Part shown: positions 18,211 to 33,945 of the stretch, in pieces | How positions within the stretch are numbered: position 1 is the stretch's first letter | Layout of the letters: every line of letters begins with the position of its first letter | Source: a phage | Length of the DNA stretch: 64,000 nt | Direction: 5' to 3' (one strand) | Assembly (NCBI GenBank): GCA_036253035.1 | Contig: GCA_036253035.1_4123.1 | Translations under genes and position numbers: made by a program | Notes under the pieces: model-generated | Databases searched by the model: none | The model's input: the letters and a program-made list of their open reading frames with translations, nothing else | What the model was told of the DNA's origin: nothing

Positions 18211-18293
18211 TTTAGTACTCCTTATTAGTGGGGGAGGATATCTCCCCCTATGTAAAACATTATACTTTGTTTTACTTACAATGCAAGTACTTT

Positions 18294-18754: not shown

Positions 18755-18776
18755 AATTTTGTTTCCTTTTATTGGT

Positions 18777-18836
18777 GGGGAGAGCTATTCTCCCCTTGAT
18801 GTAAACTATTATACAGTACTGATATACTTTGTCAAT
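18777..18836 (-). promoter_or_regulatory. early-type promoter (TTGACA-N16-TATAAT) plus 5'-proximal GC stem-loop
   Basis: -35 at 18831-18836, -10 at 18809-18814, hairpin GGGGAGAGCTATTCTCCCC at 18777-18795 about 7 nt after predicted TSS; no U tract follows. Confidence 0.6.
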
Positions 18837-18838
18837 AC

Positions 18839-19060
18839 TTAATTACGTTTAAAATGATATGTACCGTTATCATCCTGTACGCCCCATACTGATTTACCAT
18901 CAACACCAGTGAAGCCGGATTGTAATTCAATATGGAAACCGTTAGCATCAACGACGAAAACTTTTTTATTTTCATCCCGATAGCATTGATATTCTTCACC
19001 TGCTTTAAATGCTGCATCATTCAGAAGATTTGAAGCGTGAACGCAGGTCATAGTAGTCAT
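18839..19060 (-). CDS. hypothetical protein (73 aa)
   Basis: Start moved to ATG of MTTMTCVHAS with AAAAGGA RBS; track extension runs through hairpin. Confidence 0.55.
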   Translation of the reverse strand: MTTMTCVHASNLLNDAAFKAGEEYQCYRDENKKVFVVDANGFHIELQSGFTGVDGKSVWGVQDDNGTYHFKRN

Positions 19061-19248
19061 CGTCTTGATTCCTTTTAGTACCAGGGAGAACCATTTCCCC
19101 CTCTCGATATAAAACATTATACGCTCATTGAGATAGTTTGCAAGTACTTTTTATAAAATAGTTTTCAGTACTGAATACTTATATAATAGATACACTTCCG
19201 CACCCTATGGGTCAGTGAGTTATCTCTCAATGAATATATAATAGCAAA

Positions 19249-19276
19249 GGGACTGACTGGAGTCAATCCCTTTTTT
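19249..19276. terminator. intrinsic terminator hairpin with embedded minus-strand promoter
   Basis: GGGACTGACTGGAGTCAATCCC + T6; same element family as 17323. Confidence 0.5.
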
Positions 19277-19284
19277 AATCTTTT

Positions 19285-19869
19285 TTATCGTGTTATAGTT
19301 ATCGCGTTAACATCACGTTTTTTATAGTACTGATTCCAGATATTGCGGGTTAAACCGTAATCAAGTACTTTAATCAAGCCGTTGCGATCCTGGCCGATAT
19401 TCTGTTTTCTGATATCTCTTATCGTTAGTGTGGATAATGTATCATCAACGTGATTGAGAGCATCAGCGAAATGGTGATGGCGTTCTACCGTATTACGTTT
19501 AATATTGTACTTTAACTCATTGCACGCGTTTACATGCTTTACACTGCCTTTGCTTGCAGTACTCAAACGATCCATAACAATAAACAGATTATCAGGATCG
19601 CATAAATGCATATGCACTTTAGCAAAGTACTGTTTAAGGTGCGGACGGTCATAATCTAAAAAATTCCATACCTTACATTCAGTTTCATTTTGTTCTACAC
19701 CCGCATCACAATTCGCGACCTTAATCACTAACCGATCATTTAAAGCGAATACAATACGGGAAGAACCCGCACCGACGATCTCCAGTCCAGCTAACCGACA
19801 AGCTGAAAGGATCTCTTTGTTGGTTTCCATTGCATGAAGTGAACGGATGAATTTAGTATAGTTACGCAT
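19285..19869 (-). CDS. putative protein kinase-like protein (194 aa)
   Basis: Gly-rich loop GAGSSRIVF, VIKVA lysine, catalytic-loop-like IRDIRKQNI, DFG-like VLDYGL; start moved to ATG of MRNYTKF with AAGGAG RBS. Confidence 0.55.
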   Translation of the reverse strand: MRNYTKFIRSLHAMETNKEILSACRLAGLEIVGAGSSRIVFALNDRLVIKVANCDAGVEQNETECKVWNFLDYDRPHLKQYFAKVHMHLCDPDNLFIVMDRLSTASKGSVKHVNACNELKYNIKRNTVERHHHFADALNHVDDTLSTLTIRDIRKQNIGQDRNGLIKVLDYGLTRNIWNQYYKKRDVNAITITR

Positions 19870-19900
19870 TGTGTTGACTCCTTGAGTTAATGAAACTATA

Positions 19901-20143
19901 TTACAGTACTTTACTATCAATGGCAACTACTTTTTTTACTTGAACTGCGTGGAATACTTCACGCGTATTTTTAGTACTGAATACTTTTGCCGTACCTTGT
20001 TCGACCGCAATACGATAGCGACCGTTAACGTCCACCATATTGATAAAGTCCGGTGTACTGAATGGAGTTACCCGGCATTTAAGAACGGTTAACAGTTCCA
20101 CCAGCGTTGTAGTCTCTTTGATACGTTTTTCTAAAGTAATCAT
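19901..20143 (-). CDS. hypothetical protein (80 aa)
   Basis: Start moved to ATG of MITLEKRI downstream of TTGACA-N17-TACTAT; track extension reads through the promoter. Confidence 0.55.
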   Translation of the reverse strand: MITLEKRIKETTTLVELLTVLKCRVTPFSTPDFINMVDVNGRYRIAVEQGTAKVFSTKNTREVFHAVQVKKVVAIDSKVL

Positions 20144-20196
20144 TTTGTTTTCCCCGTGTTGGTATGCATTCATAGTACTAAAACATTTGAGTACTG

Positions 20197-20451
20197 TCAA
20201 CGTGATATTAGTTTTATTTTTTTATTGTATTGTTGGTGTTCATATAGATTAATTTTTCCAGTACTCTCGATCACTATTCTATTGTTAGTGTCTACATCGA
20301 TAACACGTAGTTTCCCGTTGCTTAACTTCCTGGGTAATAGACTACCATTAATAAACTCATTAGCAAGCTGTACGGCCTTTGTGATGATTCTCTGTGGGGC
20401 TTTATAGTGTACCCGTAATACATTATCGTTTGATAGTTGAACCTTAATCAT
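20197..20451 (-). CDS. hypothetical protein (84 aa)
   Basis: ATG immediately downstream of terminator hairpin. Confidence 0.5.
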   Translation of the reverse strand: MIKVQLSNDNVLRVHYKAPQRIITKAVQLANEFINGSLLPRKLSNGKLRVIDVDTNNRIVIESTGKINLYEHQQYNKKIKLISR

Positions 20452-20463
20452 TTTGTTTATCCT

Positions 20464-20490
20464 ATAAAAAAGGCGGGAACTATTCCCGCC
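20464..20490 (-). terminator. rho-independent terminator (minus strand)
   Basis: GGCGGGAACTATTCCCGCC followed on minus strand by U6; downstream of gene 20514..20909. Confidence 0.6.
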
Positions 20491-20513
20491 GTGTTGTTAG
20501 TACTGCAAAGTTA

Positions 20514-20909
20514 TTAGATAACCTGGCGGCGTTTACTGTATACTGTTACACGGTTTCCTTTACGGTCATGACGGATCTCTTTCTGGTTACGAATCAGTTC
20601 ACTTGGACGCTTAAGGTTTGCCAGGTGATCCGCGTGAGTCCATGCATTTGCGTTAACTGTAACTTCAATATCAGAACCTTTCAAAAAGTCATCTTGAGCG
20701 TTCAGTACTTCAGCCAGTTCTTGAGCTTGCTTTAGTTCTGCTGCTGTAAGTACAGGCTCAGGTGAATTCACAATATCAGAGATCTCTTTGAACTGTACCG
20801 CCCAGCGTTGTCCTTTCGGTGCATCTTTGCCCATGTCTTTAAATGTTTCACCTTCTTCACGGGCAACGATGCGAGCTTGTTCACGGGTAGCGAAGAATTT
20901 AGTAATCAT
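20514..20909 (-). CDS. hypothetical protein; paralog of 33264..33530
   Basis: Shares FATRExARIxAR..TFKDMG..RWAV and C-terminal HDRKGNRVTVYS with 33264 gene; TTGACA-N17-TATAAT upstream. Confidence 0.65.
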   Translation of the reverse strand: MITKFFATREQARIVAREEGETFKDMGKDAPKGQRWAVQFKEISDIVNSPEPVLTAAELKQAQELAEVLNAQDDFLKGSDIEVTVNANAWTHADHLANLKRPSELIRNQKEIRHDRKGNRVTVYSKRRQVI

Positions 20910-21008
20910 GGTGTACATCCTATTAGTTAAGTTAATTAGTACTACAAGTTAGAGTCTATTATAAAGTACTATCTGGGCAATGTCAAATAGTACTTTAAAT
21001 GGATTCTA

Positions 21009-21332
21009 TTACATGTCTTTCTTACGTTTTACATCGTAGTAGCGAACTGTAATTTCTTTGTTGATCTCTTCCTCGATGCGGTGAATAACTTTTTCTTTCG
21101 GGTTGAAACCTATTACAGTTTCTTTAATGATCTCCAAGCCCGTGTATTCGCCTTGTGTACCGTAACCGTAAGTAAAGGTTTCATGTCCCAGGTCTTCCCA
21201 GCGGTCACCAATCAATGCAGACACGTAGCATGAGTGGTAAGTATTGCCGTGGCTATCAGTCCACCGATTAACTTTAATGTCAAAGGAAGTTACAATTTTC
21301 ATTTCTACTTTCTGGGTAAGGATCATAGTCAT
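21009..21332 (-). CDS. hypothetical protein; paralog of 28216..28560
   Basis: Shares GNTY(H/F)S, YGYG and C-terminal DVKRKKD with 28216 gene; AGAGAG RBS. Confidence 0.65.
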   Translation of the reverse strand: MTMILTQKVEMKIVTSFDIKVNRWTDSHGNTYHSCYVSALIGDRWEDLGHETFTYGYGTQGEYTGLEIIKETVIGFNPKEKVIHRIEEEINKEITVRYYDVKRKKDM

Positions 21333-21419
21333 TTTAATTTCTCTCTTTTAGTTAGGAGGGGAACCATTCCCCTGCCTTGATGTAAACTATTATACAGTAC
21401 TAAGATACTTTGTCAATAC

Positions 21420-21695
21420 TTAAGTATTGTAAATGTCGTGAATAGTGATAAAGTTTTTACGACCGTAAACATGTAAATCAGTATCAATGTAGTGCTTATC
21501 AAGTACATCCTCGACGCTTAAAGCCGTGTCGTGAATATCTTCATAGAATTGTGGATCTACAATCTTACTTAAATCATCCGGCGTTAACTTATCATTGAGC
21601 CATTGCACCGCCTGGATATCTGCATCACGTTTCCAGTCTTCCAGGTTAGTAGTCAGTACTTGCTCGATTTCGTTAGCTGTCAGTAGAATCCGCAT
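21420..21695 (-). CDS. hypothetical protein (91 aa)
   Basis: ATG with AAGAGAG RBS; 5' hairpin GTGGGGAACTATTCCCCAC. Confidence 0.6.
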   Translation of the reverse strand: MRILLTANEIEQVLTTNLEDWKRDADIQAVQWLNDKLTPDDLSKIVDPQFYEDIHDTALSVEDVLDKHYIDTDLHVYGRKNFITIHDIYNT

Positions 21696-21784
21696 TTTAA
21701 TTTCTCTCTTTGTTAGGTGGGGAACTATTCCCCACTTGATGTAAAATATTATACAGTACTAAAAACTATTGTCAAACTATTTTA

Positions 21785-21985
21785 TCAAATTGTTTCCCAT
21801 TTCATGTTACCCGCTTTACGCTGTGAAACAGGAATAAACATGTTATTAATGTTACTAATATAACCGACCTGTAAGTCACGCTGTGAACCATACGCCCGAC
21901 TTGCTGCATTTTTAGCACCGCGTTCTGATTTATAAACGCCGCTGGATACTGTAAAGCCTACTACACCGAAAGTAAAATGTTTCAT
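21785..21985 (-). CDS. hypothetical protein (66 aa)
   Basis: ATG with AGAGGA RBS; TTGACA-N16-TATAAT upstream. Confidence 0.6.
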   Translation of the reverse strand: MKHFTFGVVGFTVSSGVYKSERGAKNAASRAYGSQRDLQVGYISNINNMFIPVSQRKAGNMKWETI

Positions 21986-22270
21986 TTTGTATTCCTCTTT
22001 GTGGTTGATGTAAGTATTATACTCGTTTAATTTCTATTGTCAAACTATTTTATCAGGGGAGGTTTTCGTATGTCTTACTCCTGGACTACTTAACGGGGTT
22101 ACTTATTTCGTTCCCCGTCCTGATGTAAAACATTATACTTGATTCTAAGTACAATGCAAGTACTTTTTAAAAATAGTTTTCAGTACTTGATAGTACTAGC
22201 CACCAGCATATAATAGATACATTTATGCACCCTGTGGGTTAGATTGTTTCTATGCATATATAATAGCAAA

Positions 22271-22298
22271 GGGACTGACCGGAGTCAATCCCTTTTTT
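22271..22298. terminator. intrinsic terminator hairpin with embedded minus-strand promoter
   Basis: GGGACTGACCGGAGTCAATCCC + T6. Confidence 0.5.
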
Positions 22299-22306
22299 AA
22301 ATCTTT

Positions 22307-22456
22307 TTAAACTTGTTTTGGGTTGCGATATGTGATAGCGTTCGGGTACATTTGTTTAATGTTATTCCATGCCTGGTTAACATTGTAACCACTTGATCGA
22401 ATCAGTTGGTTACTTCCTACGCCCTGGAACACTACTTCGAATAAGAATTCTTTCAT
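22307..22456 (-). CDS. hypothetical small protein (49 aa, below track cutoff)
   Basis: Manually translated MKEFLFEVVFQG...; start overlaps stop of upstream small ORF. Confidence 0.4.
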   Translation of the reverse strand: MKEFLFEVVFQGVGSNQLIRSSGYNVNQAWNNIKQMYPNAITYRNPKQV

Positions 22457-22623
22457 GCTGCAATCCCCTCTGATTTACCTTTACGCCAGGCGTTAGCCAG
22501 TTCATTACGTTGCCATACATCCAATGCAATGTATAGTTTAGCAGTATCCCCTTTAGGGTATTCGCCAGTAGTGCCTAACCGATAAAACAGATCTTTCAGT
22601 ACTGATAATTCTACTTGGATCAT
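22453..22623 (-). CDS. hypothetical small protein (56 aa, below track cutoff)
   Basis: Manually translated MIQVELSVLKDLFYRLG...; ATGA overlaps on both sides. Confidence 0.4.
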   Translation of the reverse strand: MIQVELSVLKDLFYRLGTTGEYPKGDTAKLYIALDVWQRNELANAWRKGKSEGIAA

Positions 22624-22712
22624 TGTATTACTCCTGATTGTGTTAGTACTTCTACGATGGCATGAATGATCATAAGTACAGCTAACACAACAATCATCGG
22701 ATTCATTTGCAT
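22620..22712 (-). CDS. hypothetical hydrophobic peptide (30 aa)
   Basis: MQMNPMIVVLAVLMIIHAIVEVLTQSGVIQ; AAGGAG RBS 8 nt upstream. Confidence 0.35.
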   Translation of the reverse strand: MQMNPMIVVLAVLMIIHAIVEVLTQSGVIQ

Positions 22713-22729
22713 AAGCTGTACTCCTTCTA

Positions 22730-22942
22730 TTAATCTTTCAGCCAATGATCTTGAATGAATTTTTCACAGAATCCCTGTTTCATAGATTCTAACAGGCGTT
22801 CACGGTGAGCGGCGGCATATTGCTCAGTACTATGCGTTACGCCAGGTTGATAACGTGAAACACCGTCCGGTCCGATATATTGAACATCCCACGGTTTTTC
22901 GTTAGTATCAGACCATTTACGAACGATTAGTTGACCTTGCAT
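22730..22942 (-). CDS. hypothetical protein (70 aa)
   Basis: ATG with AGAGGAAA RBS; 5' hairpin with 8-bp stem; TTGACA-N16-TATAAT. Confidence 0.6.
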   Translation of the reverse strand: MQGQLIVRKWSDTNEKPWDVQYIGPDGVSRYQPGVTHSTEQYAAAHRERLLESMKQGFCEKFIQDHWLKD

Positions 22943-23025
22943 GTTTCTTTCCTCTTAGTGGGGAGAATCATTTCTCCCCTTCATGTAAACTATTATACAG
23001 TACTAGATTACATTGTCAATAGTTT

Positions 23026-23349
23026 TTATTCACCTTGTTTGAATTTAGTTTTCTCCATTGATTCCATGATTGCAACCAATACAGCATGGATCTCACTTAA
23101 CGCGGCATCACTAAAAGCATTAATGAATAGGCAATCATTCTCGCGAATATTTTTAATGTACTTATCAGCAGTGGTTGCGAATTCATTCAACGGCAGATCA
23201 AATGCTTTATCCCATAATGGATGGCGTAACTGTAACAGTACTGGATTATCACGGTCACCAGGTGAGAAAGTGCCTGTAATGAAACATACACCAGGGATAC
23301 TTTCGAATTGACAACGAACTTCTTTTGTGATAGTAGTATGAATATACAT
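23026..23349 (-). CDS. hypothetical protein (107 aa)
   Basis: ATG with AGAGGA RBS. Confidence 0.55.
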   Translation of the reverse strand: MYIHTTITKEVRCQFESIPGVCFITGTFSPGDRDNPVLLQLRHPLWDKAFDLPLNEFATTADKYIKNIRENDCLFINAFSDAALSEIHAVLVAIMESMEKTKFKQGE

Positions 23350-23376
23350 TTATTTTTATCCTCTATTAAATTAATA

Positions 23377-23565
23377 TTACAGTTTATGAATCAATTCTTT
23401 ATCTAAGCGATAGCGAACATTATTGATTGTAACTGCATTGTTTTTAATGCTACGCTGTACAGGTCCACCAGCAATAACAAACGTTGCCTTATTGCCCCGA
23501 ACGATGATAGCACTTCCAGGATTACCAAAATCATCTTGTACTAAAATACTTGATAAGTTTTGCAT
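23377..23565 (-). CDS. hypothetical protein (62 aa)
   Basis: ATG with AAGGAAA RBS; hairpin; TTGCAT-N16-TATAAT. Confidence 0.6.
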   Translation of the reverse strand: MQNLSSILVQDDFGNPGSAIIVRGNKATFVIAGGPVQRSIKNNAVTINNVRYRLDKELIHKL

Positions 23566-23644
23566 TTGTCTTTCCTTGTAGTGGGGAGAACTATTCTCCC
23601 CTTCATGTAAACTATTATACAGTACTTAAAACTAAATGCAAGTA

Positions 23645-24001
23645 CTAGGATAAAATCATTATAGGATATTCACAGTTAATCAGTACTTCAAAACCAAAAC
23701 TTTCATACCATTCTTTAAGATTAAACTCGTTATCTTCTCCCGTATCGCATTCTAAGATGATACAATCTGAATCATCGGCGGCATCAATAAAGGCATTCAT
23801 TAATTCAGTACCTTCACCGTTACCGCGATTATCGGGATCAACATAAAGAGAATCAATAAACGCTACACGATCATAATCAAGATCCGGTGCAACAATGCCA
23901 CGTTTAACAAACCAGTACTGCAATTGTGCTACTTTGCCTTGTACTTGATAGCCAGTGATCTCACCATTGTCTGTAGTACGCGTGATATGTTGTATACCCA
24001 T
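23645..24001 (-). CDS. putative GNAT-family N-acetyltransferase
   Basis: Motif-A-like SLYVDPDNRGNGEGTELMNAFIDAA; TTGACA-N16-TATAAT upstream. Confidence 0.5.
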   Translation of the reverse strand: MGIQHITRTTDNGEITGYQVQGKVAQLQYWFVKRGIVAPDLDYDRVAFIDSLYVDPDNRGNGEGTELMNAFIDAADDSDCIILECDTGEDNEFNLKEWYESFGFEVLINCEYPIMILS

Positions 24002-24064
24002 GATTTCAATCCTCAGTTAAGATATAAAATATTATACACTAACTAACAGCACTGTCAATACTTT

Positions 24065-24322
24065 TTATCTCATAGATCTATGCCAACAATTACGGGGATT
24101 GCGTTTGAATATGCTATCATGATCAGCCTGGCAAGTGATGCAGTACTTACACCCCTTAACGGCCAGGCGGCGATTCTCAGGGATTTTATCGCCGCAGTCG
24201 AGGCAATGTATCAGTGATTCTATTTGTGCGTTAATTTGCGTTCTAGCGTGGTTTACAGCGGCCTGAATCACTGCGTTAATCTCGTCTTGCTCGGCCCCGT
24301 CCTTCGCGAATCCAACAGCCAT
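24065..24322 (-). CDS. DksA/TraR-family C4 zinc finger protein
   Basis: CLDCGDKIPENRRLAVKGCKYCITCQ = C-x2-C-x17-C-x2-C with IP..RR signature. Confidence 0.65.
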   Translation of the reverse strand: MAVGFAKDGAEQDEINAVIQAAVNHARTQINAQIESLIHCLDCGDKIPENRRLAVKGCKYCITCQADHDSIFKRNPRNCWHRSMR

Positions 24323-24485
24323 TATTTTAACCTCATTATAAAAATACTATAGTACTGTAATGCTACAATAATACTACTAGTACTGATTTTATTCAAACCG
24401 TATGATACTACATATTCCCCAGCATTACCACGAATGGTAACGCCTTTGTACTTTCTATATAATTTCAACTACGTTTATTGCCTTT

Positions 24486-24556
24486 GATCAAGATTTGATC
24501 AGAATTATACGCCTTATGCTAAATTGATCCAGTACTTTTTTGATCATTTATTGATC
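24486..24556. promoter_or_regulatory. GATC cluster (5 sites in 71 bp) in long 5' leader
   Basis: GATC at 24486, 24497, 24526, 24542, 24553; two embedded in TGATCA palindromes. Confidence 0.5.
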
Positions 24557-24618
24557 GATATTATATAGTTACATTTGTGCACCCTATGGGTTAGTGACGT
24601 TCTCGTCTTGATGTAAGT

Positions 24619-24647
24619 ATTATGCCAGTACTGGCATAATTTGTCAA
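24619..24647 (-). promoter_or_regulatory. sigma70-like promoter (TTGACA-N17-CATAAT)
   Basis: -35 at 24642-24647, -10 at 24619-24624; leader contains conserved dyad ACCCATAGGGTGC. Confidence 0.5.
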
Positions 24648-24651
24648 TAGA

Positions 24652-24849
24652 TTATTTTAACTTTTTTCTGTCATTGATTAATGCTTTCAGTACTATACTA
24701 ATGATCTGCAATGATTCATCAATGACTATAAAATTATTTTCTTTCATTAGATGATAGTTACCATTGATTGTATATTCTAAGGAGTACTGTTTACGTTTAA
24801 TTTTTGATAATGTTTCTATTTGTTTTTGTACTGATTTCATGCTAATCAT
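24652..24849 (-). CDS. hypothetical protein (66 aa)
   Basis: Start moved to ATG of MISMKSVQ. Confidence 0.45.
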   Translation of the reverse strand: MISMKSVQKQIETLSKIKRKQYSLEYTINGNYHLMKENNFIVIDESLQIISIVLKALINDRKKLK

Positions 24850-24943
24850 TGTTAAACGTCCTGTAACGCATTCTAACGAGTTAAACGGTTTAGTACTGGC
24901 TAAAGGATTAAAGCCCACCAGCGTTAACCAGTGGGCTATAATC

Positions 24944-25087
24944 TTACATCTTGCGGATAATCTTAACAGTATCTTTCACCGATTTACCGTCTTGCTGACA
25001 TTGTTCGATCATCGCGTATTGTTCTGCGGTCAGATCCTCGCCAGTTTTTGCCAGTACTGCGTCGATGAATGAATCCAGTGCGATCAT
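24944..25087 (-). CDS. hypothetical small protein (47 aa, below track cutoff)
   Basis: Manually translated MIALDSFIDAVLAKTGEDL...; AGAGAG RBS; TTGACA-N16-TATAAT upstream. Confidence 0.4.
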   Translation of the reverse strand: MIALDSFIDAVLAKTGEDLTAEQYAMIEQCQQDGKSVKDTVKIIRKM

Positions 25088-25186
25088 TTTGTTTCTCTCT
25101 TAGGTTAAGTTAACTACTGTTTATAAAACTTATTATACAGTACTATCAAACTATGTCAATATCTTTAATAGTACTGGTAATATATT

Positions 25187-25366
25187 TTAGCGGTAGTCGT
25201 CGTATGCTTTATTCACCTGGCGAATGTAACTTTCAAAGGCTTCGTCTACCGTTTCATACTCCCGAACATAATCACCATAGGAAACTACATACATCCCTTT
25301 TTGATCTTCAAACGTCATGATGATAGAATCCAGGCCGATGATTTCAGTTTTTGCGATAATAGCCAT
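25187..25366 (-). CDS. hypothetical small protein (59 aa, below track cutoff)
   Basis: Manually translated MAIIAKTEIIGLDSII...; AAGGAA RBS; promoter upstream. Confidence 0.45.
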   Translation of the reverse strand: MAIIAKTEIIGLDSIIMTFEDQKGMYVVSYGDYVREYETVDEAFESYIRQVNKAYDDYR

Positions 25367-25449
25367 TTTAGTATTCCTTAGTAGTGTAGTTGATAAAAGT
25401 TATTATGCCAGTACTATCAATCATTGTCAATAGTACTGTGATAATATTT

Positions 25450-25662
25450 TTAGTTAATGATAGTCAGTGTAAAATTGTAATCCCCTGCCTGGTATAGTAC
25501 TTTGTCGCCGAATGTACCAACACGTTTCATATTGCAATAGATACCCATAACACTTTTTACATCTTTGATATTCCGAACGCCTGTGATATCCTTGTTGAAA
25601 TTTTCATGATCAGAAAATAAAACTTGTTTTGCATTTTTCAGTACAGTGCAGATATTAGCCAT
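25450..25662 (-). CDS. hypothetical protein (70 aa)
   Basis: ATG with AGAGAG RBS; 5' hairpin GGGGAGAACTATTCTCCCC; TTGACA-N16-TATAAT. Confidence 0.6.
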   Translation of the reverse strand: MANICTVLKNAKQVLFSDHENFNKDITGVRNIKDVKSVMGIYCNMKRVGTFGDKVLYQAGDYNFTLTIIN

Positions 25663-25755
25663 TTTGATTTCTCTCTGTTTGTGGGGAGAACTATTCTCCC
25701 CTTGATGTAACTTATTATACAGTACTATAATCTATTGTCAAACTATTTTTTAATA

Positions 25756-26097
25756 TTATTCAAAATCTTCTGGACCGGACTGATAATCATCTTCACCGTA
25801 TGCACTTTCTAACTTCTCGCCAGTGTGATCATCAGTTAGTGAGTCATCCTCATAGTTCACGTCTACGCCTACAATGTAAAACTGGCTATCGTCTGGATCA
25901 TTGAAATTAATTTTCTGAATGTTTACAATAACGGTATTGATGCCCAGGACACCGCCATCAGCAGTTACAAAGTACTGATATTTTTCACAACCGCCTGAAT
26001 TGAAACCGTAATTAATTTCGGCCCGACCATCATTTAAACGCAGTGCCTGGGCGATGATTTCATTTTCAAAGTTAGATTGAGCAATTGAGATAGTCAT
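25756..26097 (-). CDS. hypothetical protein with strongly acidic C-terminal tail
   Basis: C-terminus rich in D/E (DDDSLTDDHTGEKLESAYGEDDYQSGPEDFE); ATG with AAGGAAA RBS; hairpin. Confidence 0.6.
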   Translation of the reverse strand: MTISIAQSNFENEIIAQALRLNDGRAEINYGFNSGGCEKYQYFVTADGGVLGINTVIVNIQKINFNDPDDSQFYIVGVDVNYEDDSLTDDHTGEKLESAYGEDDYQSGPEDFE

Positions 26098-26281
26098 GAT
26101 TTGTTTCCTTATTACCAGGGGAAACCGTTTCCCCTTTCGATGTAAAACATTATACGCTTATTGAGATAGTTTGCAAGTACTTTTTAAAAATAGTTTTCAG
26201 TACTCAAACATTATATAATAGATACACTTATGCACCCTGTGGGCTAGTGAGCTATCTCTCAATGAATATATAATAGCAAAA

Positions 26282-26309
26282 TGGCTGACCGGAGTCAACC
26301 ACTTTTTTC
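26282..26309. terminator. intrinsic terminator hairpin (element family variant)
   Basis: GGCTGACCGGAGTCAACC + T6. Confidence 0.45.
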
Positions 26310-26537
26310 ATTTATTTTTAGCTTTTAGAATCGCCGCCTTTCGCGTCATGCCTTGCTTGATGTATTCCTGTACTTTCGCTTTACGTGCATTCGCTTTATT
26401 TGCTTTCGTAAACGCCGAACAACTTTTATAATTTAAGCCTGTTGGATTCATTTAAATCACCATAAAGAATAGATAGGTTACTAACAATGCCGCGATCAAT
26501 GCACCGACCAGGGCCGAACTATAGTAAGCTAATGATT

Positions 26538-26690
26538 TCATTTTTTAGCCTGAAAGTAATGTTTAATTTGTGCGGCGGTCAGTGCACAATTACGCAGGAA
26601 GTTTTCTGTATAACTGCGGCGAGTACTGAAAGAGAATTGACCTTTGCCGTTACCGATAGTAACATCAAACCGAGCGTTGTATTGTTTCAT
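26538..26690 (-). CDS. hypothetical small protein (50 aa)
   Basis: Start moved to ATG of MKQYNARF with AGGAGA RBS; track extension runs through hairpin. Confidence 0.5.
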   Translation of the reverse strand: MKQYNARFDVTIGNGKGQFSFSTRRSYTENFLRNCALTAAQIKHYFQAKK

Positions 26691-26776
26691 TTTGATTCTC
26701 CTGTTATTGGGGAGAACCATTTCTCCCCTCTATGTAAAACATTATACGCGTTTAAAAACTAATTGCAAGTATTATT

Positions 26777-27028
26777 TTAAACTTTGTATTTTAAACTTTG
26801 TGCGACTAATTTCGCACGGTCAATCATATTCTGCCATTTTTGGATCTCTTCTGGTAGAAAACGATATTCACCAATTACAATAGTGATACACTGGTCAGCC
26901 TTGTCGATGTATGTGGTATCAATCTCTACTTGAACGGGTACACGTTCGCCGTACTCAGTCCCTGGGATAATGCAATCATTATCATAAGTTACAGTAGTAG
27001 CAGTGTCTTTGATTAAAATTGTTTCCAT
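26777..27028 (-). CDS. hypothetical protein (83 aa)
   Basis: ATG with GAGGAAAG RBS; 5' hairpin AGGGGAACGTTTTCCCCT. Confidence 0.6.
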   Translation of the reverse strand: METILIKDTATTVTYDNDCIIPGTEYGERVPVQVEIDTTYIDKADQCITIVIGEYRFLPEEIQKWQNMIDRAKLVAQSLKYKV

Positions 27029-27110
27029 TATACTTTCCTCGTTAGGTGTAAGGGGAACGTTTTCCCCTTCATGTAAACTATTATACAGTACTAAAAACTA
27101 ATTGCAAGTA

Positions 27111-27257
27111 CTATTTTTTAGATTTACGCAAACTTTCTACCATCTCAGGAGTAAGGCCAGGCGGGTAGGAAACCACTTCATCAACGAAACGTAAAGGGAA
27201 TACCCCAGCGAAAGGTGAACGTGCTTTCTTAGTATTACTCTTTTTTGATGCTTTCAT
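27111..27257 (-). CDS. hypothetical basic small protein (48 aa, below track cutoff)
   Basis: Manually translated MKASKKSNTKKARSPF...; hairpin and TTGCAA-type promoter upstream. Confidence 0.45.
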   Translation of the reverse strand: MKASKKSNTKKARSPFAGVFPLRFVDEVVSYPPGLTPEMVESLRKSKK

Positions 27258-27326
27258 TTCATATTCCTTAATTAGTGGGGAGAATCATTTCTCCCCTTCA
27301 TGTAAAACATTATACGCGTTTAAAAA

Positions 27327-27536
27327 CTAATTGCAAGTACTATTTGAAAGTAAATGCTCATACGCTGCATTAACTACGTTTTCAATAACCGACTGTACAG
27401 AAAGATCCCCCACGTCCTGGCTATAGTAGAAATCGCTTACAGTGGTGTCATCGTATGCAAATACTTTACCAGGTACTGCATCAATCACATACATATTAAC
27501 CTTTAAGATGTCGATCTTATCCTGTACAGTAAGCAT
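27327..27536 (-). CDS. hypothetical protein (69 aa)
   Basis: ATG with AAAGGT RBS, adjacent to upstream stop. Confidence 0.5.
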   Translation of the reverse strand: MLTVQDKIDILKVNMYVIDAVPGKVFAYDDTTVSDFYYSQDVGDLSVQSVIENVVNAAYEHLLSNSTCN

Positions 27537-27541
27537 ATTAA

Positions 27542-27814
27542 TTAACCTTTTAAGTACTGGCTTAAGTAGTCTTGTTGATCTTCGGTGATTGCAGCCATCT
27601 TCCCTAGTACTGGATTGATGATATAATCCCCTGTAACGTCCTGTAACGCATTCTCAGGCGGTTTAACGGCTGGGGTAGCCATAGCCATTGCCTGGACTTG
27701 TTCGACGCTGTAACGCTCATAAAGGCGGCATTCTTCCGGTGTTAACATAGCATCAGTACGCTTCATCGGTTTAATGATGCTTTCGATCTCATTCAGTACT
27801 TGATTAACGTTCAT
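27542..27814 (-). CDS. hypothetical protein (90 aa)
   Basis: ATG with GGGGA RBS. Confidence 0.55.
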   Translation of the reverse strand: MNVNQVLNEIESIIKPMKRTDAMLTPEECRLYERYSVEQVQAMAMATPAVKPPENALQDVTGDYIINPVLGKMAAITEDQQDYLSQYLKG

Positions 27815-27865
27815 GGTATAATCCCCAATATAAGCGGCCTAAATCGACCGCTAACGATGTTTTGA

Positions 27866-28135
27866 TTAATAGGTGTATGGTTGACGCTCAAACAATGATT
27901 GCACGTTGTACGCCCCGCTAATGGGCTTTGCTGGCAAATCAATTTTATATTGTTCACGCTTAAAAATAATAAAACGGCAATTGTTTTTAACATCAAAATT
28001 GATTGAACGTTCCAATAGCTTTCCTTCGTGTACAAATACAAGATAACCGCTTGCTACTTGTTTTGTAGTACTGGTTGCAACCATTGACCGACGAACATGA
28101 GTACCTGCATCGATTAAAGTACTGATATTTTTCAT
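27866..28135 (-). CDS. hypothetical protein (89 aa)
   Basis: ATG with AGAGGA RBS; preferred over overlapping alternate-frame 27811..28041. Confidence 0.55.
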   Translation of the reverse strand: MKNISTLIDAGTHVRRSMVATSTTKQVASGYLVFVHEGKLLERSINFDVKNNCRFIIFKREQYKIDLPAKPISGAYNVQSLFERQPYTY

Positions 28136-28215
28136 TTTACTATCCTCTTAATTTGATTTAATTTCTTTCCCCTATGCAGACACTATATCAAAGTATCTGC
28201 ATAAAGTAAAGCTAA

Positions 28216-28560
28216 TTAAAGATCTTTTTTGCGTTTAACATCAGTTACCGAACTGTAAACAGTGATATTATTGTCACGGCAAAAACGGGAAAGATAAGAA
28301 CCGCGTAAAAACTCTTTATCTTCCATATTAATAACCTTGCTAAATTCTTCCATTGCTACAGTGTCAAAGTGATCCCCGTATCCATATTGGAACGGCACGT
28401 TTACTACTTCAATAAAATTACCATCAATTTCTACGTCTACACTTAAAGAGAAATAAGTGTTACCATATGAAGCCTGGAACCAACGCCGAGCGGCAATATG
28501 TACAACTTCAACAGAAGACAGGTTGATATTTTGTGCTGAGATAGTGTTGATGTTAGCCAT
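28216..28560 (-). CDS. hypothetical protein; paralog of 21009..21332
   Basis: Shared GNTY(H/F)S, YGYG, DVKRKKD; AGAGGAAA RBS; TTGACA-N17-CATAAT. Confidence 0.65.
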   Translation of the reverse strand: MANINTISAQNINLSSVEVVHIAARRWFQASYGNTYFSLSVDVEIDGNFIEVVNVPFQYGYGDHFDTVAMEEFSKVINMEDKEFLRGSYLSRFCRDNNITVYSSVTDVKRKKDL

Positions 28561-28641
28561 TTTAATTTCCTCTTAGTTGTCTTGATAAAATCTATTATGC
28601 CAGTACTATCAATCTATGTCAATAGTACTGTGATAATAATT

Positions 28642-28854
28642 TTACTTACTTTGCTTTGATGCTTTATGTTGTGCAACTGCCATCACTACATCAGTACGAA
28701 CAAAGTTAGCAACCGTATCAGTATAATATTTGATTGCATCGTCAATATCTGCGAACATCCGATACATTCCGCACCATGATACTTTATAACCCGCTTTCAC
28801 TTGTTCAAGTTTAACCAGTGAATTGTTTACTTTGATTTTTGTAATGATAGCCAT
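28642..28854 (-). CDS. hypothetical protein (70 aa)
   Basis: ATG with AGAGGAAA RBS; promoter/UTR is ~85-bp direct duplicate of the one upstream of 28216..28560. Confidence 0.6.
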   Translation of the reverse strand: MAIITKIKVNNSLVKLEQVKAGYKVSWCGMYRMFADIDDAIKYYTDTVANFVRTDVVMAVAQHKASKQSK

Positions 28855-28936
28855 TTTCTTTTTCCTCTTAGTTGTCTTGATAAAATCTATTATGCCAGTA
28901 CTATCAATCTATGTCAATAGTACTGTGATAATAATT

Positions 28937-29080
28937 TTACTTACTTTTTGCTTTCTTTACAGCTTCCACCTGGTCGGCCCACTCTTTACCCCATACTTGA
29001 GCGTTATAGTGATACTGACAAAGAGCAACGCCCCGTTTCAAACCAGTGATAGATTTTTTACCACATTGACAAGTTTTCAT
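28937..29080 (-). CDS. hypothetical Cys-containing small protein (47 aa, below track cutoff)
   Basis: Manually translated MKTCQCGKKSITGLKRGVALCQYHYN...; 5' hairpin and promoter upstream. Confidence 0.45.
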   Translation of the reverse strand: MKTCQCGKKSITGLKRGVALCQYHYNAQVWGKEWADQVEAVKKAKSK

Positions 29081-29166
29081 TTTTAGTTTCCTCTTAGTGG
29101 GGAGAATCATTTCTCCCCTTGATGTAATGTATTATACTTTATCTGATTTACTTTGCAAGTACTTTT

Positions 29167-29394
29167 TTAATTTAATTCATCCAGGCAAAGGATACGATCT
29201 ACACCTAAATCAGTTAAGCTAATAGACGGCACTTGATAGGTTTCAATGTATTCTACACTAGCCCACTGACCGAACTCATTCACCGCCCAGGTATTCATTG
29301 CAAAATGTAATTCCGCACCTTTCTTATTAGTAATTACAGCAACAGTGCTAGAAGTGCCAGTAGTGCCAGATACGTAAGTAATGATGATAGCCAT
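29167..29394 (-). CDS. hypothetical protein (75 aa)
   Basis: ATG with AGAAGGA RBS; TTGACA-N16-TATAAT. Confidence 0.6.
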   Translation of the reverse strand: MAIIITYVSGTTGTSSTVAVITNKKGAELHFAMNTWAVNEFGQWASVEYIETYQVPSISLTDLGVDRILCLDELN

Positions 29395-29463
29395 TTTTTA
29401 AATCCTTCTCAGTAGTTGATGTAAAATATTATACAGTACTTAAAACTATTGTCAAACTATTTT

Positions 29464-29616
29464 TTAAAGACTATCTACGATAGCTGCCGTTTCAATAATA
29501 GACTTACCTTTTTTTGAACATGCAATAACTGCTTTAAATTCCTTTGATGACCAATCTTTCTTGCTGCATACTGACATTACTTGTAACGTGAAACAATCCA
29601 GTTCATAAGTATTCAT
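29464..29616 (-). CDS. hypothetical small protein (50 aa, below track cutoff)
   Basis: Manually translated MNTYELDCFTLQVMSVCSKK...; GAGGA RBS; TTGCAC-N16-TATAAT. Confidence 0.45.
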   Translation of the reverse strand: MNTYELDCFTLQVMSVCSKKDWSSKEFKAVIACSKKGKSIIETAAIVDSL

Positions 29617-29848
29617 CTTTAAATCCTCAGTTAGTTAAGGTGTCTTGCCTTGATGTAACTAATTATACGCCTTTCTCTTAATCGTGCAAGTACTTTTTAT
29701 TACTTTTTGCAAAATACTTTAAACGCTCTCAATCGCATTCTAACGGCCTTAACTCCACCAGCTAGGGCGATGCATCAGATAATCAGTTTAATGCGTTAGA
29801 ATCGATTCTATGAGGTGCTGACGGCATGGAATACTATAGACACAAAAA

Positions 29849-29869
29849 AGCCCACTGTATAAGTGGGCT
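29849..29869 (-). terminator. rho-independent terminator (minus strand)
   Basis: AGCCCACTTATACAGTGGGCT followed on minus strand by U6; downstream of gene 29891..30373. Confidence 0.65.
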
Positions 29870-29890
29870 AGTGATTCAGTACTTTAAATG

Positions 29891-30373
29891 TTATGCTTCA
29901 ATTTTGCGGTGAGATTCGATCCATTCCTCGCGAGTCATACCGCTTTCTTTGATTGCATCCAGTACTACCGCAATGCAGTTACCGCGTACAGGAATCAAAT
30001 GTTCTTCCCCGTTATCAAGGACAACAGTAACACGTTCTTGAATCCATTTTTTAGGCTTAGATTCCGGCTTATCTTCACCGTACTTAACCGCCAGGGCTTT
30101 ATGTGCCATTTCAATAACCACTTCCAGATCTAAACCAGACACCGCCGCCTGAATACTTTCTATTGTTGCTTGCAGTTCTGCTTCACGGGCTTTTTTCTGT
30201 TCTTCCAGTTCTGCTACCTTTTTGGCTTGTAGTTCTTTCGCTTCACTGTAAGCAATGTTAAAATTGTTGCGTACTGCTTTCATGGTATCATTATCCAGGT
30301 CAGCCAGCAATTCAGCAGCAATAACAGTATCGTTAGAAATCAGTGCTTTCAGAAATGATTTTACATTAGCCAT
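29891..30373 (-). CDS. hypothetical coiled-coil-rich protein (160 aa)
   Basis: Start moved to ATG of MANVKSFL with GAGGA RBS; long conserved leader upstream. Confidence 0.6.
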   Translation of the reverse strand: MANVKSFLKALISNDTVIAAELLADLDNDTMKAVRNNFNIAYSEAKELQAKKVAELEEQKKAREAELQATIESIQAAVSGLDLEVVIEMAHKALAVKYGEDKPESKPKKWIQERVTVVLDNGEEHLIPVRGNCIAVVLDAIKESGMTREEWIESHRKIEA

Positions 30374-30574
30374 TTTATAAATCCTCAATTAAAGTTTAAG
30401 TTAGTTTATCAAAGTTTGTTTGACGTGTCCAGTTTTTCATTCGACTTACTGGCGGTCTACTTAATGTTCCCCGTCTTGATGTAATACATTCTACGCTTTT
30501 CCCTGGTAATGTCAACTACTTTTTTAAAACTATTTTCAAAGTATACCAGTACTACGATACTACAAAAACAAAAA

Positions 30575-30595
30575 AGCCCACTGTATAAGTGGGCT
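30575..30595 (-). terminator. rho-independent terminator (minus strand)
   Basis: Identical hairpin to 29849 copy, U-run on minus strand; downstream of gene 30613..30912. Confidence 0.65.
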
Positions 30596-30612
30596 AGTGA
30601 TTCAGTACTATA

Positions 30613-30912
30613 TTATAAACAATTAATTACGCCAGTGAATGTAACTTTCTCTGTATCCATTACAGTGACAGAACCGCGTTTACTTTTTGCATCGTAATAG
30701 ATGGTCGTGCTACCCTGATCATCTTCTTCATGGTACGGGCCATTAGCAAACATTGCAGGGGCCAGTTCCAGGGATTTGGTAACGATCTCAGCCGTTTCCT
30801 CGTTAGTCATTGCAACAGTGCACTGAATGAATTTTTCTTTCGGTACATCAACGGAAGCGTTAACAGCGAAAGAGGAAACAGATAAAGCCAGGGCGATGAT
30901 TGCAGTTTTCAT
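30613..30912 (-). CDS. putative secreted/periplasmic protein with N-terminal signal peptide
   Basis: MKTAIIALALSVSSFAVNA = basic n-region, hydrophobic core, AxA-like cleavage site; TTGATA-N16-TATAAT. Confidence 0.6.
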   Translation of the reverse strand: MKTAIIALALSVSSFAVNASVDVPKEKFIQCTVAMTNEETAEIVTKSLELAPAMFANGPYHEEDDQGSTTIYYDAKSKRGSVTVMDTEKVTFTGVINCL

Positions 30913-31024
30913 TTGTATATCCTTTGTTAGTACTAGGGAGTATTCCCGATTAGATGTAAAACATTATACGCATTTAAAAACTATTATCAAGTACTTTAAT
31001 ATAAAAGTATTTGAAAAAAAAGTC

Positions 31025-31053
31025 TTGACAACTGCATCCAGTACTGGCATAAT
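31025..31053 (+). promoter_or_regulatory. plus-strand sigma70-like promoter (TTGACA-N17-CATAAT)
   Basis: -35 at 31025-31030, -10 at 31048-31053; downstream transcript would carry dyad ACCCACAGGGTGC and end at hairpin 31134-31151. Confidence 0.5.
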
Positions 31054-31059
31054 ACTTAC

Positions 31060-31160
31060 ATAAAGACGAGATAGTCACTAACCCACAGGGTGCATAGATC
31101 CGTCTATTAAATGATTCAGTACTGCAAAATAAAGGGGATCGTTTGATCCCCTCTGTATTA
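31060..31160 (+). ncRNA. candidate small non-coding RNA (~100 nt)
   Basis: Region between plus-strand promoter and hairpin/U-rich tract; no ORF; contains family dyad motif. Confidence 0.3.
31134..31151. terminator. bidirectional terminator hairpin
   Basis: GGGGATCGTTTGATCCCC flanked by A/T-rich tracts on both sides; downstream of minus gene 31158..31379. Confidence 0.5.
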
Positions 31161-31379
31161 CTTAGTAAGATATAAACAAAAATCACCTTTCTTTGCTACG
31201 CCGCCAGTGTAACGCGATGAATAGTTAGAAACGTCTTGCACTTCTGCAATGACGAGCGTATCATCATTTATTTCGTCGCAAAAACATACTGCGGGATCTT
31301 CTACGCCAATATTGTCAGCATGTGCCCGCATAGATTTAACCAGTGCTTCAAGCTGGGAAAGAGTAGTGATATTAGCCAT
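31158..31379 (-). CDS. hypothetical protein (73 aa)
   Basis: ATG with AAGGAG RBS; hairpin; TTGCAA-N16-TATAAT. Confidence 0.6.
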   Translation of the reverse strand: MANITTLSQLEALVKSMRAHADNIGVEDPAVCFCDEINDDTLVIAEVQDVSNYSSRYTGGVAKKGDFCLYLTK

Positions 31380-31466
31380 TGTAAAACTCCTTATTAGTGG
31401 GGAGAACCATTTCTCCCCTTGATGTAAACTATTATACAGTACTGGAAACTAATTGCAAGTACTTTT

Positions 31467-31670
31467 TTAATTTAATTGCTTTAAAACATAATCAAAGACA
31501 CCACGCACATCATTGATCATCGCCTGGCGGTTAGCAGGTAACGCATCAGGATCGCCACTATCCCAGGCATTAATGAAGCCACCTAAATCATGGAATACTT
31601 TATTCCGTAACCCGATCAACTGCAATTCTTTTTCTTCAAGCTCTTTGATACGTTTAATTAAATCACTCAT
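31467..31670 (-). CDS. hypothetical protein (67 aa)
   Basis: Start moved to ATG of MSDLIKRI with GAGGA RBS. Confidence 0.55.
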   Translation of the reverse strand: MSDLIKRIKELEEKELQLIGLRNKVFHDLGGFINAWDSGDPDALPANRQAMINDVRGVFDYVLKQLN

Positions 31671-31687
31671 TAGATAATCCTCAGTAC

Positions 31688-31972
31688 TCAATTGTAAGAT
31701 CCGCAACGGTCGCAGTAGTGCCCGTCCTCGTCATCTTCTACCACTTGCCCGATGAAATGATCTACTTTCGCTTTCAGGTTATTATAATCGTTTTCTACTT
31801 CCTTTAAACGCTTCTGGTAGTATTCCAGTGCTTTAAGATATGCCGCATCAGTAGTTTTCTCCTGCATAGCTAAATTCATGCCACGCGTTTCATCGTACAG
31901 CCAAAAACCATCGGTGCACTCACTTATAGACAATGACTTGCTTAACACATTGTACTTTATTACTTTACTCAT
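31688..31972 (-). CDS. hypothetical protein with C-terminal CxxC (94 aa)
   Basis: ATG with GAGGA RBS; ends ...HYCDRCGSYN. Confidence 0.6.
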   Translation of the reverse strand: MSKVIKYNVLSKSLSISECTDGFWLYDETRGMNLAMQEKTTDAAYLKALEYYQKRLKEVENDYNNLKAKVDHFIGQVVEDDEDGHYCDRCGSYN

Positions 31973-32057
31973 TAGATAATCCTCAGTAAAGGCGGGAACT
32001 ATTCCCGCTCTCGATATAAAGTATTATACGTTAATCTAATTACTTTGCAAGTACTTT

Positions 32058-32294
32058 TTAGTGCTTTTTATAAAACATCTCAGCGGTGATATTTTTACCC
32101 GTTGGTTGTACTTTATCCAGGATCTTTTGGTGTGCACTACGCCCGAAAGAATAAGAACCGTAAACCGTTAGCCAGTAGTCGCCATTTTGGTTTACATGTA
32201 CCGCACAATAGGGAACGCCCCGCGAATCGTCACCAATGAAGTGTGATACTGTACCCGTTACGTTTGGTGTTGTAGTTTTGATTTGTTCGATCAT
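32058..32294 (-). CDS. hypothetical protein (78 aa)
   Basis: Start moved to ATG of MIEQIKTT with AGGAG RBS. Confidence 0.55.
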   Translation of the reverse strand: MIEQIKTTTPNVTGTVSHFIGDDSRGVPYCAVHVNQNGDYWLTVYGSYSFGRSAHQKILDKVQPTGKNITAEMFYKKH

Positions 32295-32352
32295 TTCTCT
32301 TACTCCTGGGATATAGGCGGGAACCATTCCCCGCCATTGATTCAGTACTGAA

Positions 32353-32964
32353 TTAATATGCGATAGATTCTACTACATCGTCGATAACGTTAAATTGATA
32401 TTCGTTACCCTCGATCAGTGCTACAATGTTTTCAGTAGTAAACTGGTCTTCATAAGCATTTTCTAAATCACGGTACAGCTTACAAGATAATTCTCGGATA
32501 GTATCAGTCAGTAAGTTTTCCAGATCCTCAGCTAATGCAGCCTGTTTTACAGTTAAATCAGTGTAGCGAGTATCAACGCAACCGCCTACCGTGTTTTCGT
32601 GTGCATAACGCGATTGGGAACGTTCTACACTCATTTCCAAATCATCTTCGTTCAACAGGTGACGGATGGAACGATATTTCGTTAACGCCTTAACCTTGCG
32701 TAAAAACTTCTCAGCGTCAACGTGGTCAGTACTGATTGATGCACCGTCACCTTGCGACCAAAAACCACTGTATTGCAATTCAGCTTCATCTATGCCGTAT
32801 TCTGGTAGTACTGTTTCTTTATAGTATTCCAGTACTGATTCAGCAAAGAAATTATCCTCACTTGCACGTTCCCGATCCCGAACCAGTTCGATAGCCGCCG
32901 TTTGTTGTTCTGCGTTCAGTTCAGAAAAAGCCATAACAAAAGTAGTAGTAGTGATAGTTTTCAT
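32353..32964 (-). CDS. hypothetical acidic protein (203 aa)
   Basis: Start moved to ATG of MKTITTTT with GAGGGT RBS; D/E-rich; conserved long leader upstream. Confidence 0.6.
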   Translation of the reverse strand: MKTITTTTFVMAFSELNAEQQTAAIELVRDRERASEDNFFAESVLEYYKETVLPEYGIDEAELQYSGFWSQGDGASISTDHVDAEKFLRKVKALTKYRSIRHLLNEDDLEMSVERSQSRYAHENTVGGCVDTRYTDLTVKQAALAEDLENLLTDTIRELSCKLYRDLENAYEDQFTTENIVALIEGNEYQFNVIDDVVESIAY

Positions 32965-33263
32965 TTTGTAACCCTCATTCATTAGTTGATGTAAGTATTA
33001 TACGCTTTTACTTTCTATTGTCAAACTATTTTATCAGGGGAGTTTTTCATACGTCTTACTCCTGGACTACTTAACAGGGAGTTACTTATTTCATTCCCCG
33101 TCCTGATGTAAAACATTATACGCCTTTAAACATAGTTTGCAAGTACTTTTTGAAAATAGTTTTTAGTACTTTCCTATAGATACACTCCCGCACCCTATGG
33201 GCTATCGCCTTGTGTCCGGCTTGTAAGTATTATCTCACTAAGCCGGATAACGGTCAAGTACTT

Positions 33264-33530: not shown

Positions 33531-33612
33531 GCTGTTACCCCTATCGTTGTTGTATAAAAGAAATCTATTATAAAGTACTATCACCGTGCAATAGTACTTT
33601 TAATCTATTCTC

Positions 33613-33852: not shown

Positions 33853-33945
33853 TTTTTTAATCCTCTTATATAGTGGGGAACTATTCCCCACCTGATGTAA
33901 AACATTATACGCTTTTAAACTTAGTTTGCAAGTACTTTATTAAAC

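Follow-up and report, generated by a model that had tools for sequence, protein, structure and literature searches.

Two small, strongly acidic proteins, p1 (113 aa) and p2 (203 aa), both encoded on the minus strand of the window that we analyzed (a 64,000-nucleotide stretch of phage DNA), are in our tentative assessment best explained as independent early effectors that act stoichiometrically by binding a conserved host protein, probably one that itself binds nucleic acid, and we place the chances of this explanation a little under even. An initial annotation had proposed, from composition and context, that both proteins may be DNA mimics with an anti-restriction function. Both proteins belong to families in which non-acidic residues are conserved alongside the acidic ones, which argues for a specific binding or catalytic site, and not just for a polyanionic surface.

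The window derives from a 121Q/PBECO4-like (Asteriusvirus) jumbo coliphage: by megablast, the 9.5 kb around both genes show 96.5% identity to Escherichia phage 121Q and 86–93% identity to other Asteriusvirus jumbo phages. At least 80% of this 9.5-kb block is covered in only 1 of 191 related records, and we thus read the block as a cassette-level mosaic of exchangeable small genes. Both reading frames exist as the initial annotation had described them, at 25756..26097 (p1) and 32353..32964 (p2), and the calculation of pI and charge distribution that it had called for gives a pI of 4.05 and a net charge of −18 for p1 (23 D/E vs 5 K/R), and a pI of 4.36 and a net charge of −22 for p2. Each protein has a full-length HMM match to a PHROG of unknown function (phrog_18238 for p1, E = 3.9e-57; phrog_5162 for p2, E = 2.4e-79), and databases already list both as hypothetical proteins. 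For p2, the start that gives 203 aa is correct: a GAGGG Shine-Dalgarno sequence is found 7 nt upstream of the ATG at 32964, whereas the promoter at 33024..32997 would start transcription just ~8 nt from the other in-frame ATG, at 32982, which is too near. Among the 129 non-overlapping ORFs of at least 60 aa in the window, the most negative 50-aa segment is found in p1 (net −16) and the third most negative in p2 (net −12); both proteins are extreme outliers in local charge, in a window where only ~4% of crude ORFs reach 20% D/E. Neither protein has a paralogue within the 64-kb window.

The acidic charge of p1 is concentrated in its C-terminal half, as the initial annotation had noted in describing a long D/E-rich tail: the last 50 residues contain 17 D/E and 1 K/R, compared to 6 D/E and 4 K/R in the first 63 (hypergeometric P = 0.0014 for the clustering). 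The word "tail" does not stand, however, since residues 64–103, with the motifs NDPDD, VNYEDD and DDHTGE, are both conserved and ordered, with block mean pLDDT values of 87–94 in the AlphaFold2 model, and only residues 104–113 (DYQSGPEDFE; 25759..25788, minus strand) form a true, disordered tail (pLDDT <50). Overall, the model of p1 has a mean pLDDT of 83.6 (block means of 87–94 across residues 41–100) and is predicted to form a small α/β domain, with the acidic segment as a coil packed on a small sheet. The 22 close homologues of p1, aligned over residues 1–103, share invariant GFNSGG, NDP, V80-N81, L87, D90 and T92-G93, and the other positions of the motifs NDPDD, VNYEDD and DDHTGE hardly vary within the same set. 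Among close relatives the acidity of the tail is kept, while its length and sequence vary (0–20 mostly acidic residues after SAYGE). An SSB-like C-terminal acidic-aromatic tip is at most a minor possibility for this segment, as the tail is missing or different in most close relatives.

The conserved part of p1 corresponds to a much larger domain family. Profile searches with this acidic domain (residues 27–103; 25789..26019, minus strand; block mean pLDDT 77–94) recovered 401 representatives at 50% identity in an exhaustive search and, in a second one, at least 3,603 clusters at 90% identity, with the consensus GGYPxYYxTxDGGxL[S/C]xx[A/C]...DPDDxQWxVVxxxVN[WY]EDxxLxCDH[T/C]GxxIESAYxE. Most members are 90–130 aa long and end just after ...IESAY-x-E, and the domain is also embedded within some proteins of 300–830 aa. 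All of the 120 members listed are named "hypothetical protein", and only one of them carries any Pfam domain. A pattern scan for loci of this family, which used the narrower of our alignments (A4) as the broad alignment (A3) is too divergent for locus searching, gave 22 loci in IMG/VR vs a single one in 185,579 species genomes. By these searches, the family appears to be very large, unnamed and almost wholly viral. The residues kept across the family include the non-acidic G35, Y37, L51, W73, N81, L87, H91, I96, A99 and Y100. The median pI of the domain is 4.18 (5–95%: 4.05–4.93), with a median net charge of −10 over ~75 residues, and the p2 family has corresponding medians of 4.44 and −22; the acidity is therefore a family trait in both cases, and not a quirk of the copies in this window.

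The alignment of the p1 family also suggests a history for its fold. At the columns corresponding to residues 52, 55, 89 and 92 of p1, 41 of 150 representatives carry cysteine at all four, 66 retain C89 alone, 40 lack all of them, and intermediate states occur in just 3. That is, 27% of the family carries CxxC...CxxC exactly where p1 has GINT (residues 52–55; 25933..25944, minus strand) and DDHT (residues 89–92; 25822..25833, minus strand; CDHC in the Cys4 members). Such an all-or-nothing distribution marks a structural Cys4 zinc site with a history of repeated loss, and p1, with G52, T55, D89 and T92 at the four positions where 41 of the 150 relatives keep cysteine, is thus a zinc-less derivative. 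In its Cys4 members the family resembles the small zinc-ribbon and treble-clef proteins of phages, but p1 itself lacks both CxxC knuckles, with none of the four cysteines present, and the GGYPxYY, NWED and IESAY motifs are specific to its family. The Cys4 members of the family gave only sub-threshold matches to assorted zinc-ribbon Pfam models.

For p2, we found 189 homologues, in Asteriusvirus, RaK2-like, rV5-like, Erwinia, Yersinia, Acinetobacter, Caulobacter and Bacillus phages, and like that of p1 this family is almost restricted to viruses. When 78 family sequences are aligned, with identities down to ~25%, Q71, G72, D73, G74, A75, H122 and Y164 are invariant, and G57, S66, G67, F68, S70, Y120, L167 and E178 are nearly so. 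Most of these residues fall into two motifs, a near-invariant loop at residues 66–76 (SGFWSQGDGAS; 32737..32769, minus strand), which holds the invariant stretch from Q71 to A75, and a second motif at residues 120–125 (YAHENT; 32590..32607, minus strand), in which Y120 is conserved to 99% and H122 to 100%. Eighteen columns are occupied by D or E in at least 70% of the sequences, mostly on predicted helices. The AlphaFold2 model (mean pLDDT 92.2) predicts an α/β protein of a family separate from that of p1, and a Foldseek search against BFVD returned only uncharacterized relatives of p2 itself. We note that several records of 75–143 kb labeled "Campylobacter phage" (MG065690, MG065647 and MG065659) carry genes of rV5-like E. 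coli phages, including a p2 homologue of ~58% identity, and that the host label or the sample of these records may be wrong.

The genomic context of both genes is that of an early cassette region, as the initial annotation had supposed. Our promoter scan found 31 near-consensus sigma-70 promoters on the minus strand between 17.2 and 35.6 kb (17160..35627); over the entire window, the plus strand has 3. These cassette promoters consist of TTGACA or TTGCAA, a spacer of 16–17 nt and TATAAT, with one small gene per promoter, and the block that they define matches the ~20–21-kb direct terminal repeat of related phages. Each of the two genes has its own promoter within this array, TTGCAA-16-TATAAT for p1 (26149..26176, minus strand) and a perfect TTGACA-16-TATAAT for p2 (32997..33024, minus strand). 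Around 20 of the 31 promoters are followed by a conserved hairpin (GGGGAGAA...TTCTCCCC), a Shine-Dalgarno sequence and a small ORF; in the case of p1, the hairpin (GGGGAAA-CGG-TTTCCCC; 26118..26134, minus strand) lies between the promoter and the Shine-Dalgarno sequence. The element shared by the 5′-UTRs of these ~20 cassettes, TTTACATCAAGGGGAGAAATGGTTCTCCCC, could be an mRNA-stabilizing or processing signal.

Several other cassettes of this region merit brief mention. By local charge, the protein encoded at 23645..24001 (minus strand; 118 aa, pI 4.05, net −16) ranks second in acidity within the window; it belongs to the short GNAT acetyltransferases (Acetyltransf_1, E = 5.6e-10), has its own perfect promoter at 24058..24031, and is another candidate early effector. 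Also on the minus strand, a 160-aa gene at 29891..30373 is flanked by two copies of the same terminator-like hairpin (AGCCCACTTATACAGTGGGCT, then a run of T; 30575..30595 and 29849..29869), as if this cassette had been inserted together with its terminator. Two small minus-strand ORFs (25187..25366 and 28642..28854) both start with MAII(A/T)K, have an aromatic-rich middle and a DEA/DDA...Y C-terminus, and follow almost identical TTGACA-17-CATAAT promoters; these may be paralogous cassettes that have diverged.

The link between this array and the genome end comes from relatives with known termini. The related phage fEgEco12 has a direct terminal repeat of 20,993 bp, identified by PhageTerm and confirmed by digestion (PMC13070987). 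Its p2 homologue, at 3,540–4,148, lies inside this repeat, and is present in two copies in the record. In fENko-Kae01, the p1 homologue is found at 10.6 kb, within an annotated 19.7-kb repeat in which every gene reads inward, and in the phiCbK-like Caulobacter phage CcrPW it is the first rightward gene, ~3 kb from the end of an annotated 18.4-kb terminal repeat. When the distances between homologue and genome end in these relatives, and in other records with two copies of a homologue, are mapped onto the window, in which both the coding strand and the GC skew switch at 34–38 kb, the physical left end of the genome would fall near 36.5 kb, at the start of a direct terminal repeat of ~21 kb; the window itself seems to be drawn from a record that runs through this junction of left end and terminal repeat near 36,500. 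From the individual sigma-70 promoters, and from the presence of homologues inside the determined terminal repeats of relatives, we infer with good support that p1 and p2 are expressed pre-early, by the host RNA polymerase. In this respect their position is analogous to that of T7 gene 0.3 or of the first-step-transfer genes of T5.

The first-step-transfer genes of T5 lie in its terminal repeat, are transcribed by the host RNA polymerase and are involved in host shut-off. The block that carries p1 and p2 shares with the pre-early genes of T5 a long direct terminal repeat, dependence on host RNA polymerase and many small genes of unknown function; this likeness rests on location and gene type, with gene-level homology and two-step DNA transfer being no part of it. 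A similar logic, in which a small, acidic, early protein blocks a DNA-binding site of a host enzyme, is found in the RecBCD inhibitors T7 Gp5.9 and λ Gam and in the RNA polymerase inhibitor T7 Gp2, none of which is homologous to p1 or p2. Inhibition of RecBCD would be a plausible need for this phage, because a linear genome has exposed ends.

Taking these observations together, we propose the following scenario. The direct-terminal-repeat block would enter the cell first. Within minutes of injection, p1 and p2, two unrelated stand-alone accessory proteins with a host sigma-70 promoter each, would be synthesized, and their action would be stoichiometric. In p1, the active unit would be a compact acidic domain of ~75 residues with a floppy, acidic tip of 10 residues, derived from an ancestral fold held together by a Cys4 zinc site of which the p1 lineage has replaced all four ligands; in p2, it would be a strictly conserved, polar, pocket-like motif together with the many conserved acidic positions on its helices. 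In either case, the conserved acidic face and motif may bind a conserved host protein on a basic surface, one that probably contacts nucleic acid; both proteins would then be inhibitors that serve host takeover or counter-defense, with DNA mimicry as one possible form. What the data show directly are the genes, their charge and conservation, the size of the families, the disappearance of the Cys4 pattern, the promoters and the location. We infer the early timing from the promoters and from the termini of relatives, and inhibition through protein binding and the nature of the target likewise go beyond what is directly observed. Against the proposal, neither protein has similarity to any characterized inhibitor. 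In addition, an enzymatic or ligand-binding role would explain the conserved non-acidic residues of both families equally well or better, in particular in the case of p2.

An alternative to be taken seriously, if on the unlikely side, is that p2 is an enzyme or a binder of a small molecule, such as a signaling nucleotide, with S66/S70-Q71-G-D73-G-A, Y120-x-H122-E123-N-T125 and Y164 forming the site and the acidity being secondary. These site residues have stayed invariant or nearly invariant although the family has diverged to 25–30% identity, and in the model the motif residues are found in loops beside strands, as they would be in a pocket. However, p2 has no match to any enzyme family, and the 18 conserved acidic columns that extend across its helices more closely resemble a conserved interaction surface.

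For p1, we also considered a role in the phage's own DNA or RNA transactions, where it might assist replication, recombination or transcription or serve as an adaptor that binds metal. The acidity would then reflect a conserved site for a cation or partner, and not the inhibition of the host. We think this unlikely. Distant homologues are located near helicase, RecT, DUF3799 exonuclease, MazG and (divergent) terminase small-subunit genes, the domain is found fused inside proteins of 300–830 aa, and the ancestral Cys4 arrangement together with the conserved D, N, E and H residues is typical of metal-dependent small domains. When the neighborhoods of 27 diverse p1-family loci were clustered by BLASTP, however, no neighbor family was common to more than two loci, and the fused partners contain no domain recognizable by Pfam and so give no functional clue. 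Moreover, the gene lies in the terminal-repeat block of Asteriusvirus relatives and of a related Klebsiella jumbo phage, and in the terminal repeat of phiCbK-like phages, and the equivalent block of the window consists of host-promoter cassettes. In Pfam-annotated contigs, p1-family genes occur in arrays of small unknown genes, and the neighborhoods of the p2 family were equally without functional clue. Given the lack of a recurrent neighbor, these small-gene arrays, the cassette mosaicism and the near-exclusive viral occurrence, p1 and p2 behave as stand-alone viral accessory genes.

The proposal of the initial annotation, that p1 and/or p2 are anti-restriction DNA mimics, would mean that their carboxylates stand in for the phosphates of DNA and inhibit Type I R-M or BREX enzymes in the manner of Ocr and ArdA, here with new folds; on balance, we consider this improbable. 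Ocr (T7 gp0.3), which inhibits Type I R-M and BREX by mimicking DNA, forms an all-helical, elongated dimer, and ArdA is a three-domain protein of ~166 aa that also forms an elongated dimer. Like Ocr, p1 and p2 are small, very acidic, stand-alone proteins, encoded in the leading part of the genome behind promoters for the host RNA polymerase; like ArdA, a DNA mimic of the leading regions of plasmids and ICEs that is widespread among mobile elements, they are acidic and would be among the first proteins expressed on entry. Both families combine high net negative charge with low pI throughout, as expected of DNA mimics, and the charge per residue, −0.16 for p1 and −0.11 for p2, is within the range of known mimics. 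The pre-early position and the sigma-70 promoters are also consistent with such a role, as is the occurrence of ArdC-N and DUF932 genes near two distant p1 homologues. Finally, the DNA of a related phage can be restricted in vitro, with fEgEco12 DNA being cut as predicted by all of the restriction enzymes used (PMC13070987). The DNA of this phage therefore has no intrinsic protection, and protection at the protein level would help.

Several observations nevertheless stand against this proposal. Searches of Pfam, NCBIfam and the anti-phage defense HMMs of PADLOC gave nothing above threshold for p1 or p2, Pfam and NCBIfam were likewise empty for the scanned family members and for the fused or longer homologues of both proteins, and sequence and profile searches of the PDB returned only chance-level matches (ranaspumin, Lmo0741 and CMF34). 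With regard to Ocr, there was no Pfam match at E ≤ 1 and no PDB sequence or profile match at E ≤ 10, including to chain 1S7Z, and neither p1 nor p2 has an Ocr-type all-helical, elongated fold; the same is true of ArdA (PF07275), to which we found neither sequence nor fold homology, and which differs from the nearly virus-confined families of p1 and p2 in its distribution. Structure prediction, which the initial annotation had suggested, thus produced no fold match to Ocr, ArdA or any other solved mimic. DNA mimics are a functional class without a common fold, and because of this a negative fold search leaves mimicry unrefuted: these negatives lower the probability that either protein is an Ocr or an ArdA, but not that it works like a mimic. 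The surface of Ocr tolerates mutation, whereas in the p1 family conservation extends beyond charge to a defined motif, with N81, E83, L87, H91, I96, A99 and Y100 being kept far more strictly than the charge pattern. The acidic segment of p1 is, in addition, predicted to be a coil on the small sheet of an α/β domain with a lost zinc site, and not an elongated rod as in Ocr. Across the 27 loci, linkage to anti-defense genes is inconsistent, and neighbors of this kind are sporadic, with ArdC-N/MPTase 2.6 kb away at one locus and DUF932 adjoining at another. Nothing specific points to restriction as the target of either protein.

A more speculative form of the same idea, which we rate as quite improbable, is that the p1 domain is a new structural class of DNA-mimic or counter-defense protein, a miniature acidic domain built from a zinc knuckle. 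It would act on arrival of the genome end in the cell, by blocking a universally conserved host enzyme that handles DNA (Type I R-M/BREX, RecBCD or similar), and p2 would be a second, independent class encoded in the same block. The possibility that the acidic composition is incidental, or that the two ORFs are not real genes, is very remote: this AT-rich phage does have many acidic small ORFs (pI <5 in 19% of a crude distribution), but both genes have a promoter, a Shine-Dalgarno sequence, deep conservation and confidently predicted folds, both are extreme in local charge and keep their acidity in highly diverged homologues, and conservation effectively excludes that they are not real genes.

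Two of the database labels on homologues are misleading. The label "DNA ligase" (phrog_18452; CcrPW gp003, 2803..3210) was rejected, as the protein concerned is a 135-aa member of the p1 family without any Pfam or ligase domain, and the match between p1 and phrog_18452 is confined to the shared domain of ~75 aa; the label appears to have spread from CcrPW gp003 into PHROGs. The label "YeeU-like antitoxin" on the p2 homologue of K64-1 was also rejected, as there is neither a match to the CbeA_antitoxin Pfam model nor a YeeU fold. A further homologue is labeled "RNA polymerase binding protein". The removal of the ligase and antitoxin labels is a gain in itself.

Our literature search found no study on these genes or their PHROGs, and no Asteriusvirus transcriptome. 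Acidic early hypothetical proteins are common in phages, and in this sense p1 and p2 are reasonable but ordinary candidates. What is new here is the corrected anatomy of p1, in which a folded and conserved domain takes the place of the supposed tail, the very large, unnamed family to which it belongs, with a degenerate zinc site that was lost in the p1 lineage, and the assignment of p1 and p2 to an array of pre-early cassettes that can be linked to the terminal repeat. Should either protein turn out to inhibit an enzyme of host defense or DNA handling, the few known DNA mimics and anti-restriction proteins would gain a new fold, and there would be a first function both for a family of thousands of phage proteins and within the pre-early block in the terminal repeats of Asteriusvirus and RaK2-like jumbo phages, the genes of which are almost all unannotated.

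Elsewhere in the window, the plus strand carries a tandem array of ~14 paralogous ORFs of 245–406 aa (39978..57290). The five ORFs of this array that were scanned contain β-propeller repeats, RCC1-like in four cases and Kelch in one, which is an unusual expansion for a phage.
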